Shown here: positions 6,405-11,772 of the stretch, piece by piece
How the letters are laid out: every line of letters starts with the position of its first letter
Numbering within the stretch: position 1 is the stretch's first letter
From: a virus
Lineage: Duplodnaviria; Heunggongvirae; Uroviricota; Caudoviricetes
Direction: 5' to 3' (one strand)
Length of the DNA stretch: 11,772 bases
IMG/VR virus record: IMGVR_UViG_2671180637_000006
Location: 1 to 11,772 of that record
Position numbers and translations under genes: made by a program
The notes under the pieces: generated by a model
What the model was told of the DNA's origin: nothing
The model's database searches: none
Seen by the model: the letters and a program-made list of their open reading frames with translations, nothing else

Positions 6405-8723
6405 ATGAGCACAAAATTCAAAACCGTTATCACCACTGCCGGTGCAGCAAAGCTGGCAGCGGCAACCGCACCGGGAGGGCGGAAGGTCAACATTACCACG
6501 ATGGCCGTCGGGGATGGCGGTGGTAAATTGCCTGTCCCGGATGCCGGACAGACCGGGCTTATCCACGAAGTCTGGCGACATGCGCTGAACAAAATCAGTC
6601 AGGACAAACGAAACAGTAATTATATTATCGCAGAGCTGGTTATTCCGCCGGAGGTGGGCGGTTTCTGGATGCGTGAGCTTGGCCTGTACGATGATGCGGG
6701 AACGCTAATTGCCGTGGCAAACATGGCCGAAAGTTATAAACCAGCTCTTGCCGAAGGCTCAGGGCGTTCGCAGACCTGCCGCATGGTCATCATCGTCAGC
6801 AGTGTGGCCTCAGTGGAGCTGACCATTGACACCACAACGGTGATGGCGACGCAGGATTACGTTGATGACAAAATTGCAGAGCACGAACAGTCACGACGTC
6901 ACCCGGACGCTTCGCTGACCGCAAAAGGTTTTACTCAGTTAAGCAGTGCGACCAACAGCACGTCTGAAACACTGGCTGCAACGCCGAAAGCGGTAAAGGC
7001 CGCGTATGACCTTGCTAACGGGAAATATACCGCGCAGGATGCCACCACCGCGCGAAAAGGCCTTGTTCAGCTCAGTAGTGCGACTAACAGCACGTCTGAA
7101 ACGATCGCCGCAACGCCAAAGGCGGTTAAGACAGCGTATGACCTTGCTAACGGGAAATACACTGCACAGGACGCCACTACAGCGCGAAAAGGTCTTGTCC
7201 AGCTCAGTAGCGCCACCAACAGCGATTCTGAAACGCTTGCGGCAACACCAAAGGCGGTTAAGACAGCGTATGACCTTGCTAACGGGAAATACACTGCACA
7301 GGATGCCACCACGGCGCGAAAAGGGCTTGTCCAGCTCAGTAGCGCCACCAACAGTGATTCTGAAACCCTCGCGGCAACGCCAAAAGCAGTGAAGTCTGCC
7401 TATGACAATGCTGAAAAACGTCTTCAGAAAGATCAGAACGGTGCGGATATTCCGGGAAAGGATACCTTCACGAAAAATATCGGTGCCTGTCGTGCTTATA
7501 GCGGCGCTTTGAGCACTGAAGCCGGAAACTGGACAACCGCTCAGTTTATTGACTGGCTAGAGTCTCAGGGAGCCTTTAATCATCCCTACTGGATGTGCAA
7601 AGGCTCCTGGTCATATGCAAATAACAAAATCATTACGGATACCGGATGTGGTGATATCCACCTGGCTGGTTGTGTCGTCGAGGTCATGGGAACTAAATCT
7701 GCAATCACTATCCGAGTGACCACGCCGACAACATCAAGTGGTGGCGGTACAACCAGCGCGCAATTCACTTACATTAATCATGGGGACGGCTACTCCCCCG
7801 GCTGGCGTCGTGACTGGAATCGTCAGGGCGACGCAATGACCGGAACGATTAATCAGGACGGTGGAAGCCAGAATGCCTATATGTCTACGGCCTTATGTTC
7901 AGGCACCAGAGGCGGCAAAAAATATCTCAGAAAGTTTCGTGGTGGAGAAGGAGATACTATCTGGCATGAAACAGTACAGGGCGGGGTAATTCGCTGGGCG
8001 ACAGGAAACTATGACACTCAGGAAGAATTATCACTCAGCTCCGCTTATGGTCTCCGTTCAAGAGGTGAAATTACATCACTCAGTGCTAATGGTCTGCGCA
8101 TTGCTTATGGCAATTATGGATTCTTTATCAGGAATGATGGCGGCAGCACATATTTAATGCTGACGGCCTCTGGCGATAAATTTGGGACATGGAACGGTTT
8201 AAGACCGCTGACTATCAATAACGCTAATGGCGGAGTGTCAATGGGGCATGGCCTGAGTGTTACAGGTGATATTGTCTCAAGTACCAAAGTACGTGCCGGT
8301 AGCGGGAAAAAGTTCACGGTCAGCAGCAGCAATACATCCACGAAGGAAGCCGCATTCAATTTGTGGGGAAACTCAAGTCGTCCTGTGGTGGCTGAATTAG
8401 GTGATGATGCAGGCTGGCATTTTTACAGTCAGAGAAATACAGATAACAGCATCACTTTTGCTGTTAACGGGCAGGTATCACCATCTAACTATAGTAATTT
8501 TGATTCACGCTATGTCCGGGATATCCGGCTTGGTGGTGCTGCCACATACAAACCTGCGAACAATGGCATGACATGGACACATCAGGCACCGTCCGGGTGT
8601 GTATATTCCGGCATTATTGTTCAGGATACCGGCTCAAACTCTGCCGATAACATTGGTGGCATATATTACAGACCGGTGCAGAAATACATTAACGGGACAT
8701 GGTATAACGTAGCGCAGGTATAA
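6405..8723 (+). CDS. H: Tail fiber protein H (P2 gpH-like N-terminus, repeat-expanded shaft, divergent distal domain), 772 aa
   Basis: ATG at 6405 with GTGAGG at 6395-6400. N-terminal roughly 150 aa (MSTKFKTVITTAGAAKLAAATAPGG...) is P2 H-like. Then 44-aa phage-tail-fiber-type repeats, then a Gly/Ser/Thr/Asn-rich distal domain encoded by AT-richer DNA. Confidence 0.9.
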   Translation: MSTKFKTVITTAGAAKLAAATAPGGRKVNITTMAVGDGGGKLPVPDAGQTGLIHEVWRHALNKISQDKRNSNYIIAELVIPPEVGGFWMRELGLYDDAGTLIAVANMAESYKPALAEGSGRSQTCRMVIIVSSVASVELTIDTTTVMATQDYVDDKIAEHEQSRRHPDASLTAKGFTQLSSATNSTSETLAATPKAVKAAYDLANGKYTAQDATTARKGLVQLSSATNSTSETIAATPKAVKTAYDLANGKYTAQDATTARKGLVQLSSATNSDSETLAATPKAVKTAYDLANGKYTAQDATTARKGLVQLSSATNSDSETLAATPKAVKSAYDNAEKRLQKDQNGADIPGKDTFTKNIGACRAYSGALSTEAGNWTTAQFIDWLESQGAFNHPYWMCKGSWSYANNKIITDTGCGDIHLAGCVVEVMGTKSAITIRVTTPTTSSGGGTTSAQFTYINHGDGYSPGWRRDWNRQGDAMTGTINQDGGSQNAYMSTALCSGTRGGKKYLRKFRGGEGDTIWHETVQGGVIRWATGNYDTQEELSLSSAYGLRSRGEITSLSANGLRIAYGNYGFFIRNDGGSTYLMLTASGDKFGTWNGLRPLTINNANGGVSMGHGLSVTGDIVSSTKVRAGSGKKFTVSSSNTSTKEAAFNLWGNSSRPVVAELGDDAGWHFYSQRNTDNSITFAVNGQVSPSNYSNFDSRYVRDIRLGGAATYKPANNGMTWTHQAPSGCVYSGIIVQDTGSNSADNIGGIYYRPVQKYINGTWYNVAQV
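6924..7406 (+). repeat. In-frame tandem repeat array, about 3.7 copies of a 132-bp (44-codon) unit, inside H
   Basis: Unit K-G-[FL]-[TV]-QLSSATNS[TD]SET[LI]AATPKAVK[AT]AYDLANGKYTAQDATTAR starts at 6924, 7056, 7188 and 7320 (partial). Copies differ at a minority of nucleotides, so they are diverged, not identical. Confidence 0.85.
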
Positions 8724-8726
8724 TTT

Positions 8727-9254
8727 ATGCAGCATTTGATAAATATAACGGCGGGTAATCCAAAAACAGTTGAACAATATCAATTGACAAAGGACTTTGA
8801 TGTTGTCTGGTTTTTTACAGAAGATGGTAAGAACTGGTACGAAGAACAAAAGTATTTTGCTGATGACACGATAAAAATAGCGTACGACAAAGATAATATC
8901 ATCCGCTATGTGGAAAAGGATGTGACAGCTATCAGACCGGATGGATTAAGTGTTGTTGAAGTGCCGGATATTACTGCTAACCGACGGGCGGACATTTCAG
9001 GGAACTGGATGTTTAAGGACGGTACAGTGATTAAACGAATTTATACGGCAGAGGAATTGCAGCAGCAGGCAGAAAATCGGAAAGCCAGACTTCTTGCAGA
9101 TGCTGAATCCGTGATTTTGCCGCTGGAGCGCGCTGTCAGGCTGAATATGGCAACAGATGAGGAGCGCAGTCGACTGGAGGCATGGGAACGCTACAGTGTT
9201 CTGGTCAGTCGTGTGGATCCTGCAAATCCTGAATGGCCGGAAATGCCGCAATAA
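8727..9254 (+). CDS. G: Tail fiber assembly chaperone G (Tfa family), 175 aa
   Basis: ATG at 8727, 3 nt after the H stop. AT-rich N-terminal two-thirds and a GC-richer conserved C-terminus (...[29 protein letters not shown]), as expected for a chaperone co-varying with the fiber tip. Confidence 0.85.
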
Positions 9255-9289
9255 GTTGTATGAGCTCTGGTGTGAGCTTACATATCTAT

Positions 9290-9339
9290 GGCACAGAGTA
9301 AAGCCTAATCTGAGAGTCCGCTCTGTGCCAGGAGCGGAC
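9290..9339 (+). other. Two overlapping, mutually exclusive hairpins just downstream of G
   Basis: GGCACAGAG (9290-9298) pairs with CTCTGTGCC (9321-9329); GTCCGCTC (9316-9323) pairs with GAGCGGAC (9332-9339). The stems share nt 9321-9323. No clean U-tract follows. Confidence 0.3.
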
Positions 9340-9467
9340 GTTCGTATGCTTGGCAACTTTGGTTTTCCTGAGTTCAACTTAACCACCTATGTATCATCGT
9401 AGCCTCTATAGAATAATCATTTTAAAACCTTTTAATATTTGGTAATATGTATTCTATAGTGATCATT

Positions 9468-9510
9468 ATTTCCTATCTCCACGACAGTTATGAGATAGGA
9501 AATTTAATAT
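9468..9510 (+). promoter_or_regulatory. Perfect 12-bp inverted repeat (candidate operator) overlapping a possible sigma70 promoter for the TIR-like gene
   Basis: ATTTCCTATCTC (9468-9479), 12-nt spacer, GAGATAGGAAAT (9492-9503). A -10-like TAATAT at 9505-9510 and a weak -35-like ACGACA at 9481-9486 lie about 40 nt upstream of the ATG at 9547. Confidence 0.35.
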
Positions 9511-9546
9511 AGATGTCGTAATGATGACGATAAAAGTTGAGATGTC

Positions 9547-10512
9547 ATGACCAGTATATTTATATCCTATGCCAGAGAAGACTTTTTAATTGCAAAAAAA
9601 CTAACCGAAGAACTAAATCGACATGAGTACAAGGTATTTTTGGATCAACAATCGATTCAGCTTGGGGCTCATTGGCAAGAAGATATACTGAAGCATTTAA
9701 AAAATGCGGATGTATTTATCGCACTTGTTACTGAACATAGCGATAAGTCTTATTATTTTAATGCAGAGGTTACTGGCGCTATATCCTATGTAGCTCATAG
9801 CAATCGGGATAAACTTATTTTGCCAGTGGTGCTGGATAAAGAAGTGCTTAATGATAGCGATCTTGGGGCCTTCCAAGCATTATTCGCACGCTCTGATGAT
9901 ATGACATACCTCGTACATGAAATTGTGAATGCTATCAGCCGCTTCGAAGGTGCCCGACTAGCTCAGGAAGAGATAAAAGAAATTCGAGCACAAGTTCTTA
10001 AAGATGAATCAGCCGATTACATAAGCGAAACAATTGAGGATCTTAAGGCGCGCGAAAAAGCTGGTCGCCAATTATCGTCAAGATGGCATTTTGCTGGATA
10101 TGCGGCATTAATACTTTCTGTCATTTTCGTATTTATTCTTTGGTATTTGGCTGAGCGTTCATTTGTACAATCACCTCTTGATACCACTAGACTGGTTTTC
10201 GATGCCATTAAGGGCGTAACGGTTGTTGCGTTACTTTTGGGCTTGGCAAGATATTCATTTTTAATGGCGAAAACTCATCAATTAGAAGCTTTGAAGAACG
10301 CCGATCGTCTGCACGCCATTTCTTTTGGGAAATTTTATATGCGCGTTTTCTCTACGCAAATATCTCAATCTGAATTAAAAGAAGTATTTCAACATTGGAA
10401 TACTTCAGGGGCGTCAGATTTGTCGCATCTTGATGTAGATAAAATTGACTCGCGATTTATTGAACTCTTTGGGAAAATCGCATCAAGATTTGATGGCAAA
10501 AATAAATCTTAA
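9547..10512 (+). CDS. TIR-like domain protein fused to a C-terminal two-helix membrane hairpin, 321 aa; candidate anti-phage effector
   Basis: ATG at 9547. N-terminus fits the TIR pattern: IFISYAREDF (betaA), KVFLD (betaB), ADVFIALVTEHSDKSYYFNAEV (betaC/alphaC with Glu74 at the position of the conserved TIR glutamate). Residues about 130-180 are charged and helical. Hydrophobic helices FAGYAALILSVIFVFILWYLA and GVTVVALLLGLARYSFLMA, then an 80-aa tail. Confidence 0.6.
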   Translation: MTSIFISYAREDFLIAKKLTEELNRHEYKVFLDQQSIQLGAHWQEDILKHLKNADVFIALVTEHSDKSYYFNAEVTGAISYVAHSNRDKLILPVVLDKEVLNDSDLGAFQALFARSDDMTYLVHEIVNAISRFEGARLAQEEIKEIRAQVLKDESADYISETIEDLKAREKAGRQLSSRWHFAGYAALILSVIFVFILWYLAERSFVQSPLDTTRLVFDAIKGVTVVALLLGLARYSFLMAKTHQLEALKNADRLHAISFGKFYMRVFSTQISQSELKEVFQHWNTSGASDLSHLDVDKIDSRFIELFGKIASRFDGKNKS

Positions 10513-10642
10513 CTAAGGATTCTTCTTGTCAGGGCTGGCAATCAATTTAAGCCCGCTATTCGCTCAAAGCAGACTATCAGATTTGATAGCGTTTGGGCTA
10601 TGTAAATTGTCAGTCGGAAAATGAGCGTGTACAAATCATGAC

Positions 10643-10670
10643 AGGCGGGCTGATTGCCCGCCTTTTCTTT
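10643..10670 (+). terminator. Rho-independent terminator downstream of the TIR-like gene
   Basis: GC stem AGGCGGGC (10643-10650), loop TGATT, GCCCGCC (10656-10662), then TTTTCTTT (10663-10670). Confidence 0.7.
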
Positions 10671-10765
10671 ATCTGTTGTTTCATCCACTGACCAGCCAGG
10701 TCAAATAGCATCTCATGCTCTGCACAACAGAAAATAGTTGCACCCATTAACCACGGAGTTAAACG
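10671..10765 (+). promoter_or_regulatory. Region expected to contain the late promoter for the FI operon (P2 P_F equivalent)
   Basis: By synteny, P2 has a late promoter upstream of FI. Contains TGTTGTT at 10674-10680 followed by ACCAG at 10691-10695, and the inverted pair TCTGTTGT (10672-10679) / ACAACAGA (10724-10731). GGAG at 10755-10758 is the RBS for FI. Confidence 0.3.
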
Positions 10766-11772
10766 GATGAGTGACTATCATCACGGCGTGCAGGTGCTGG
10801 AGATTAACGACGGCACCCGCGTCATTTCCACCGTATCCACTGCCATTGTCGGCATGGTCTGTACGGCCAGCGATGCGGATGCGGAATCCTTCCCCCTCAA
10901 TAAACCGGTGCTGATTACCAATGTGCAGAGTGCAATTGCAAAGGCCGGTAAAAAAGGCACGCTGGCGGCATCGTTGCAGGCCATCGCCGACCAGTCAAAA
11001 CCGGTCACCGTTGTTGTGCGCGTGGAGGACGGCACCGGCGACGACGAAGAAACGAAACTTGCGCAGACCGTTTCCAATATCATCGGCACCACCGACGAAA
11101 ACGGTCAGTACACCGGACTGAAAGCCCTGCTGGCGGCAGAGTCGGTAACCGGTGTTAAACCGCGCATTCTCGGTGTGCCGGGACTGGACACCAAAGAGGT
11201 GGCTGTTGCACTGGCATCCGTCTGTCAGAAGCTGCGCGCTTTCGGATATATCAGCGCATGGGGCTGTAAGACCATTTCCGAGGTGAAAGCCTACCGCCAG
11301 AATTTCAGCCAGCGTGAGCTGATGGTCATCTGGCCGGATTTCCTCGCATGGGATACGGTCACCAGTACCACCGCCACCGCGTATGCCACCGCCCGTGCGC
11401 TGGGGCTGCGCGCTAAAATCGACCAGGAGCAGGGCTGGCATAAAACGCTGTCCAACGTCGGGGTAAACGGTGTTACCGGCATCAGCGCATCTGTATTCTG
11501 GGATTTGCAGGAGTCCGGCACCGATGCTGACCTGCTTAACGAGTCAGGCGTCACTACGCTGATTCGCCGCGACGGTTTCCGATTCTGGGGTAACCGTACC
11601 TGCTCTGATGACCCGCTGTTCCTCTTTGAAAACTACACCCGCACCGCGCAGGTGATGGCCGACACGATGGCTGAGGCGCACATGTGGGCGGTGGACAAGC
11701 CCATCACCGCAACGCTGATTCGCGACATCGTTGACGGCATCAATGCCAAATTCCGTGAGCTGAAAACAAACG
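10766..11772 (+). CDS. FI: Tail sheath protein FI (P2 gpFI-like), 5' partial (runs off the window end)
   Basis: ATG at 10766 with GGAG at 10755-10758. Open frame to the window end reads MSDYHHGVQVLEINDGTRVISTVSTAIVGMVCTASDADAESFPLNKPVLITN..., which I recognise as the P2 tail sheath N-terminus. Confidence 0.9.

Follow-up and report, generated by a model that had tools for sequence, protein, structure and literature searches.

The question raised by this locus is what a perfect 12-bp palindrome does in front of a single TIR gene carried by a prophage. The stretch of DNA that was analysed, hereafter called the window, is 11,772 nucleotides long and represents the late region of a P2-like prophage, which holds a single-gene TIR-plus-transmembrane cassette at approximately 9320-10566. 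A preliminary description of this DNA placed the palindrome across promoter hexamers and read it as an operator for a dimeric regulator. The palindrome consists of three parts:

9468-9479, + strand: left arm, ATTTCCTATCTC, found by an inverted-repeat scan
9480-9491, + strand: spacer, or loop, of 12 nt, CACGACAGTTAT
9492-9503, + strand: right arm, GAGATAGGAAAT, found by the same scan and containing a Shine-Dalgarno-like AGGA at 9497-9500

The arms ATTTCCTATCTC and GAGATAGGAAAT are complementary at 12 of 12 positions with 12 nt between them, which confirms the perfect inverted repeat with an N12 spacer that had been described at 9468-9503. The ATG of the TIR_2 gene is located at 9547, with the palindrome 44-79 nt ahead of it, in agreement with the earlier estimate of about 45-80 nt. 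In 300 dinucleotide shuffles of the whole window, perfect 12-bp inverted repeats with a gap of ≤30 nt occurred at a mean of 0.02 per shuffled window, and 1.7% of the shuffles had one. For the 207-nt leader, which has a G+C content of 32%, the mean for the same repeat class was 0.0024 (5000 shuffles). The palindrome is the sole repeat of this class within the window. The shuffles and the position support the proposal that the promoter-proximal leader of the TIR gene contains a cis element that is not random; the palindrome is real and a chance match is ruled out.

Three overlapping sigma-70-like promoter candidates are found immediately upstream:

9420-9448, + strand: P-a, with −35 TTTTAA at 9420-9425, TG at 9440-9441 and −10 TAATAT at 9443-9448; predicted start ~9455
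9432-9460, + strand: P-b, TTAATA-17-TATAGT, from the promoter scan; predicted start ~9467
9439-9466, + strand: P-c, with −35 TTGGTA at 9439-9444 and −10 GATCAT at 9461-9466; predicted start ~9473, within the left arm

The key bases of P-a, a site recognised by consensus match only, are all invariant in five lineages of the cassette. The site that the scanner calls in a 75%-identical homologue, L049, is TTTAAA-16-TATTAT, and its −10 aligns on TAATAT at 9443-9448 (A2 alignment). P-b is the only one of the three that the scanner calls in the window; the final T of its −10 is not conserved and the other lineages feature GATAGC, TATAGC or TATACC. P-c is called in L040 (TTGGTA-16-TATAAT, 10/12) and in L122 (TATCAT), and its −35 is invariant. 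The three alternative starts would place the palindrome between about −5 and +48, and a start from P-c would leave the outer 4-5 nt of the left arm untranscribed. The dyad symmetry is confirmed, and the overlap with a promoter is judged from consensus matches that give these three alternative starts. The overlap with −35/−10-like hexamers that had been claimed is not borne out, since P-b ends 8 nt before the palindrome and the −10 (9461-9466) of P-c, a candidate conserved across lineages, abuts it, so the palindrome is at or just downstream of the likely start and not across the hexamers. A scanner-called antisense promoter on the minus strand, ATGACA-16-CATCAT, was rejected. Its −35 is not conserved, and neither is its spacing because a 27-nt indel falls between the hexamers.

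A second inverted repeat lies just upstream of the palindrome:

9406-9459, no strand assigned: inverted pair CTATAGAATA (9406-9415) and TATTCTATAG (9450-9459), which encloses promoter-like hexamers

The two halves, CTATAGAATA and TATTCTATAG, are complementary at 10 of 10 positions and are separated by 34 nt. This pair is perfect in the window and in the aligned cassette copies that encode the identical protein. It is at best 6-8/10 complementary in L040, L045 and L122, and a gap interrupts it in L044. The second pair therefore exists where the preliminary description had placed it, but as part of an operator region it is not kept in the four diverged lineages. An invertible promoter bounded by this pair was considered as well and was rejected, since 34 bp between the arms is much too little for synapsis by a recombinase, and since the pair lacks conservation.

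The palindrome is surrounded by the following genes and sites:

6405-8723: tail fibre gene H of the P2-like late region
8727-9254, + strand: P2 gene G-like tail fibre assembly protein, the backbone gene upstream (Pfam Caudo_TAP, E 1e-34)
9307-9337 or 9307-9339, + strand: left cassette boundary site, GTCCGCT-N10-AGCGGAC (7-10-7 dyad), where the homology among TIR cassettes begins
9547-10512, + strand: cargo gene of 321 aa with an N-terminal TIR_2 domain (Pfam TIR_2, E 6e-21) and a hydrophobic C-terminal half
10551-10583 or 10553-10583, − strand: right cassette boundary site, an inverted copy of the left one, found by the inverted-repeat scan
10767-11772, + strand: P2 FI-like sheath gene, the backbone gene downstream, which runs off the window and is placed as the sheath gene in L008 and L010

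Located between G and FI, the TIR cassette occupies the P2 Z/fun hotspot and has an inverted repeat at either end. These boundary sites match the 'left' and 'right inverted repeat' annotated in GenBank AJ512683, and a review (PMC8987985) credits site-specific exchange at the Z/fun inverted repeats to Nilsson et al. (2004). The DNA shared among cassettes starts at ~9318-9323 inside the left dyad, continues unbroken through the palindrome to the gene and ends ~54 nt past the stop codon, near 10566. Within the cassette, the palindrome is found ~150 bp from the edge, and the leader that contains it is ~225 nt long. The cassette-flanking DNA matches >1000 complete E. coli genomes and 68 phage records with ~91-95% identity. 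These matches cover only ~15-17% of the query 9255-10700, and the matching records have other genes at the cassette spot, such as DUF4145, Lit, DUF6615 and a 'lysogenic conversion protein'. The cargo DNA (9340-10550) has no match in 5,426 complete E. coli genomes, in PLSDB (72,556 plasmids) or in INPHARED (50,697 phage records), sensitive mode included. The cargo matches known defence families at the level of the TIR domain only, and no literature on this TIR-plus-transmembrane cargo was found.

The identical TIR protein is listed in 180 assembly-collection blocks, and one source names it E. coli. Ten contexts of the identical gene place it after the tail fibre assembly genes of other phages, a terminase, lambdoid replication genes and chromosomal BCCT/DUF2254 genes. 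Across Escherichia, Salmonella, Klebsiella and Serratia, at least nine distinct left junctions precede the cassette and its leader. Diverged copies with the same leader occur in other contexts at 93% (under a Serratia name, after nrdDG), 90% (Klebsiella), 87% (Salmonella) and 84% (metagenomic) identity. Judged from these sequence comparisons, the palindrome belongs to the mobile TIR cassette and not to P2.

Several observations concern the mobility of the cassette. The boundary dyad was compared among the window, L003-L012, L040, L045, L122, L123, L131 and L134. It is ~24 bp in length (GTCYGCT-N10-AGCGGAC) and is present as two inverted copies. The inner half moves together with the cargo, and the outer half remains in the backbone. 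The left boundary dyad is overlapped by another perfect 10-bp inverted repeat, TGGCACAGAG (9289-9298) and CTCTGTGCCA (9321-9330); this repeat is also found in E. coli A23 (L002), which carries other cargo, so it is a feature of the backbone or the site and not of the cassette. L045, L122 and L134, the last from the same Salmonella locus as L045, have a further site 15-30 nt on, before the next gene, which results in cassette arrays. A 200-aa tyrosine recombinase and putAbiC follow the right site in 8 of the 10 contexts of the identical TIR gene. This recombinase has weak matches to XerC/XerA and to a 'tyrosine-type DNA invertase', and a TIR gene with 75% identity (L126/L127) is also followed by a recombinase, of 207 aa. 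The recombinase link and the cassette arrays may be undescribed so far. IS elements (rve transposases) truncate the TIR copies of Salmonella enterica (L131-L136) at the 3' end, and an HNH-plus-IS segment beside the Salmonella copies is inverted between L045/L134 and L131.

The conservation of the palindrome was assessed in five lineages (the window, L040, L044, L045 and L122), and pairs were counted on seven distinct sequences. Invariant positions make up 11/12 of the left arm, 9/12 of the right arm and 6/12 of the spacer, and the 10-bp core arms are kept in all five lineages. TATCTCC and TGAGATAGGA are unchanged in all lineages, while right-arm positions 9501-9503 vary. The left arm changes in L122 (C9473A) and in L011 (C9479T). 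L040-L043 have a spacer of 11 nt, compared with 12 nt in the others, and the arms are intact in L040. The invariant fraction is 0.83 for the arms (20/24), 0.65 for the rest of the leader and 0.67 for the 4-fold degenerate sites of the TIR gene (64/96). Conservation of the arms is thus only modestly above the neutral proxy, and the overall rate of change in the leader is close to neutral. Among the 12 pairs in the seven sequences, 7 never vary and 2 change on one side to G-U on the sense strand (C9479T in L011 and A9502G in L040). The remaining 3 have unpaired cells, from the loss of the terminal A-U in four rows and from C9473A and A9501T, which are both in L122. None of the 12 pairs changes on both sides, in a covariation test whose power is low because only seven distinct sequences are available.

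The palindrome is missing from homologues at 69-78% identity, whose leaders are unrelated or, in L049, partly homologous. In L137, which is 90% identical, the promoter and the palindrome are replaced (1785-2015) by the 5' part of a small recombinase gene. The gene that donated this part normally lies downstream of the TIR cassette, and the junction in L137 is near a short similarity, ATATCTCAC versus CTATCTCCAC. No comparable near-perfect palindrome was found in two other Z-region cargo leaders (L001 and L002) or in the distant TIR homologues.

Such a pattern could be left by a palindrome that has been inherited but has little or no function today, and that arose once in the ancestor of the enterobacterial cassette, possibly by template switching that perfected a quasi-palindrome, and is still visible since the lineages are young. 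The leader is as variable as the 4-fold sites with the arms weakly above them, the arms decay without compensation in L122, L137 retains the TIR gene with other DNA in place of the promoter and palindrome, and the more distant homologues do without it; all of this is consistent with such a relic. However, chance would very rarely produce a 12/12 repeat (0.002 per leader), and the inner 6-7 bp of each arm show no change in any of the seven distinct sequences, in contrast to the spacer, half of whose positions vary. We consider a functionless relic unlikely.

A functional palindrome could be an operator, and the regulator that would bind it was looked for in several ways. Between the cassette ends, all ORFs of ≥25 aa except the TIR gene itself are nested within that gene, out of frame or on the opposite strand; the island has no candidate regulator ORF outside the TIR gene, as had been noted before. 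No regulator gene is consistently adjacent to the cassette across its other contexts. The exact 12-N12-12 palindrome is absent from 185,579 species-representative genomes (one per species). The 10-bp core with a gap of 6-18 nt has 3 matches in IMG/VR, all of which are the TIR cassette. In metagenomes the core has 66 matches, of which only L069 and L110 are the TIR cassette; the others are unrelated longer or isolated palindromes of other organisms, many of them in recurring repeat families. In metagenome contigs L056-L121 the 10-bp arms, TTCCTATCTC and GAGATAGGAA, occur in unrelated repeat families, with 8-nt loops in Ga01263xx and 18-nt loops in Ga0187833. These families share no flanks with the TIR cassette, so the likeness is coincidental. 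Half-sites with ≤2 mismatches are about as frequent as expected by chance, both in the window and in the ±3 kb around eleven related loci. The recurrence elsewhere that the preliminary description had proposed as a check was not found, with no copy beyond the TIR cassette in the window, the related loci, IMG/VR or the metagenomes. The palindrome thus appears to be solitary and not part of a regulon.

The leader was compared by eye with known operator consensus sequences, which included LexA (CTGT-N8-ACAG), the Fur box, CRP, OxyR, the NarL heptamers, the RcsAB box, HipB and lambda. The matches are partial and none is conserved, and the best likeness, 11/19 to the Fur box at 9406-9424, lies outside the palindrome. 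With 22-24 bp between their centres, the half-sites are spaced unusually for a simple dimer. A nearby regulator or known consensus, a recurring site and a fixed half-site spacing, by which an operator would be recognised, were not found.

An operator would be bound at its arms, at about −5 to +48, by a dimeric or tetrameric DNA-binding protein from the host core genome or another element, and RNA polymerase would be blocked so that the TIR effector stays low until a signal relieves the block. Operators with 12-bp ends and a long centre exist, such as bioO for BirA. A repressor classically binds where the perfect dyad is found, at or just past the likely start, and the arms are kept in sequence, beyond what mere pairing would require, while the spacer drifts. 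The DNA palindrome also extends 4-5 bp beyond the part that P-c would transcribe, which is easier to reconcile with a function at the DNA level. On the other side, the regulator is absent from the island and from the consistent neighbours of the cassette in other contexts, and a second site or enrichment of half-sites is lacking in the window, the flanks of the 11 related loci, IMG/VR and the metagenomes, as is the exact palindrome in the 185,579 genomes. L040 has an 11-nt spacer with intact arms, and by eye the palindrome lacks a match to LexA, Fur, CRP, OxyR, NarL, RcsB or lambda-type operators. With the cassette spread across four genera, only a conserved core protein could serve as the factor. 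An operator bound by an unlinked factor is possible but doubtful. The preliminary description thus stands for a non-random cis element and for an island that holds no regulator, but not for an operator of a dimeric regulator, for which nothing positive was found in a solitary site with wide half-sites in a regulator-free mobile cassette with an 11-nt spacer lineage. Its fallback, that the element could be structural, fits the solitary site, the mobile cassette and the 11-nt spacer at least as well.

At the RNA level, the hairpin formed by the palindrome has a predicted stability of −15.4 kcal/mol. The predicted fold of the 95-nt leader has a z-score of −3.25 relative to shuffles, which qualifies it as stable. 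In 6 of the 7 distinct sequences the hairpin has a predicted −13.3 to −15.9 kcal/mol; in L122, weakened by two uncompensated arm changes, it has −4.9 kcal/mol. A search of Rfam gave no match at E ≤1, save a chance snoRNA match elsewhere. A longer helix that encloses the hairpin, formed by ATCATTA with TAATGAT or by CTATC with GATAG, was rejected because its register shifts between lineages and it shows no covariation.

The cassette lies directly after the late operon and is bounded by recombination-type dyads, and the palindrome might therefore be a transcription stop or insulator against read-through from the late operon V-G, or else a recombination site of the cassette mobility system. However, the stem has only 4 G-C pairs out of 12, the loop is 12 nt and there is no U-run (tail UUAAUAUAG), so the terminator scan does not call it. 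The cassette junctions are 130-150 bp upstream at another dyad, and the arms are dissimilar to the boundary sites. Both functions are the least probable of the explanations considered.

The leader downstream of the palindrome features two elements:

9512-9528, + strand: invariant 17-mer GATGTCGTAATGATGAC, which holds ATG-TCG-TAA (9513-9521) overlapping ATG-ATG
9521-9550, + strand: short upstream reading frame MMTIKVEMS-stop, read from the sequence; its stop TGA overlaps the TIR ATG (ATGA)

The 17-mer GATGTCGTAATGATGAC is the longest invariant run in the leader and is unchanged in every leader that bears the palindrome. L137, which is without the promoter and palindrome, departs from it by two changed bases and one extra base. 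Searches of IMG/VR with the 17-mer and with a promoter-block pattern returned only the TIR cassette or chance coding matches, with no reuse of the leader ahead of other genes. The upstream frame is 27 nt longer in L044, L045 and L122, and in the window lineage 27 nt of it are deleted in frame. It ends in ATGA on the TIR start in the window, L044, L045 and L122. In L040 a 2-nt deletion shifts the frame, which stops 8 nt before the TIR start. The peptide is not conserved, as all 6 differences between L044 and L122 alter an amino acid. In L040, L044, L069 and L122 an ATG located 8 nt after AGGA is in frame with the upstream reading frame. This ATG is lost in the window and in L045, where ATG-TCG-TAA (9513-9521) overlaps the ATG at 9521. 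If the upstream frames matter, they would probably do so by being translated and not via their peptide product.

The palindrome is probably an ordinary, cassette-specific control element that would act either as an RNA hairpin or as a protein-binding site. Our tentative preference is for a cis-acting stem-loop in the 5'-leader RNA of the TIR cassette mRNA. This reading is ranked first because it requires no trans factor, allows a change in loop length, suits a solitary site on a mobile cassette and puts AGGA inside the stem. The operator for an unlinked factor is ranked second and the functionless inherited palindrome third, and the first two are both compatible with present data. For a cassette that crosses genera without a regulator and has no second site, a self-contained cis mechanism needs no extra assumption. 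The palindrome lies between conserved promoter-like hexamers and the start codon, and the arms persist while the loop changes at 6/12 positions and shrinks to 11 nt in L040, which also speaks for a stem-loop. Further points in its favour are the predicted stability of the hairpin, the two arm substitutions that yield G-U pairs, and the AGGA of the 3' arm with an in-frame ATG after it in L040, L044, L069 and L122. The lack of compensatory change, the weakened hairpin in L122, the modest conservation of the arms and the lack of an Rfam match speak against it, as do the unconserved peptide, the window lineage without an ATG after AGGA and the truncation of the left arm that a P-c start would cause.

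In a leader RNA stem-loop, transcription would begin from the conserved promoter-like site just upstream (~9455, 9467 or 9473) and would include the palindrome, whose arms would fold in vivo at or near the 5' end of the transcript. The stem would have 12 bp with a start at 9455-9467 and 6-8 bp with a start at ~9473. The hairpin could set the level of the TIR protein without a dedicated regulator, through the stability of the mRNA or through its translation. By the first route the 5' end of the transcript would be shielded from decay. By the second route the AGGA of the 3' arm would be locked up, which would let fewer ribosomes enter the short frames that terminate at the TIR start codon. A far more speculative and very unlikely extension combines the hairpin, the hidden AGGA, the invariant ATG-TCG-TAATG-ATG block and the upstream frame into a regulator-free translational gate of the hok/mok style in a portable phage-defence cassette. 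Were this long shot true, a membrane-targeted NAD-degrading effector would be left untranslated in the lysogen, and the gate would open only when infection changes mRNA processing or ribosome availability.

The palindrome can be compared with several known systems. The hairpin of the ompA 5' UTR stabilises the transcript, and the mRNAs of hok/mok and other type I toxins have leader hairpins that sequester the Shine-Dalgarno sequence. The predicted stem-loop would resemble these systems in being stable and within a few nt of the likely 5' end, in the AGGA of its 3' arm, in a short frame that ends on the main start and in a potentially toxic cargo. Unlike these leaders, it has a candidate start only, no covariation, no antisense RNA that was found and a peptide that is not conserved. 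The palindrome also resembles lacO1 and bioO, the latter with 12-bp ends, in being a perfect dyad, at or just after the predicted +1, with arms conserved in sequence. It differs from them in having no cognate regulator, no second site, a 12-nt centre of variable length and no match to the operator consensus sequences compared. The cassette is like the Z/fun morons of P2 (AJ512683; Nilsson et al. 2004, as reviewed in PMC8987985) in its location between G and FI, its inverted repeats and its single gene with its own promoter-like region; unlike the AJ512683-type cassettes, its cargo is a TIR-plus-transmembrane protein. The Z/fun cassette is the only known system for which membership was tested and found, and the palindrome itself, still uncharacterised, falls into a familiar class, that of promoter-proximal or leader elements.

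At present the finding concerns one leader element in one cassette family, with no wider regulon seen in the searches. If the palindrome controls expression, a single-gene and potentially toxic TIR cassette would carry its own regulator-free control between the prophages and chromosomes of different genera. This would be useful for cloning and testing such cassettes 'under the native promoter'.
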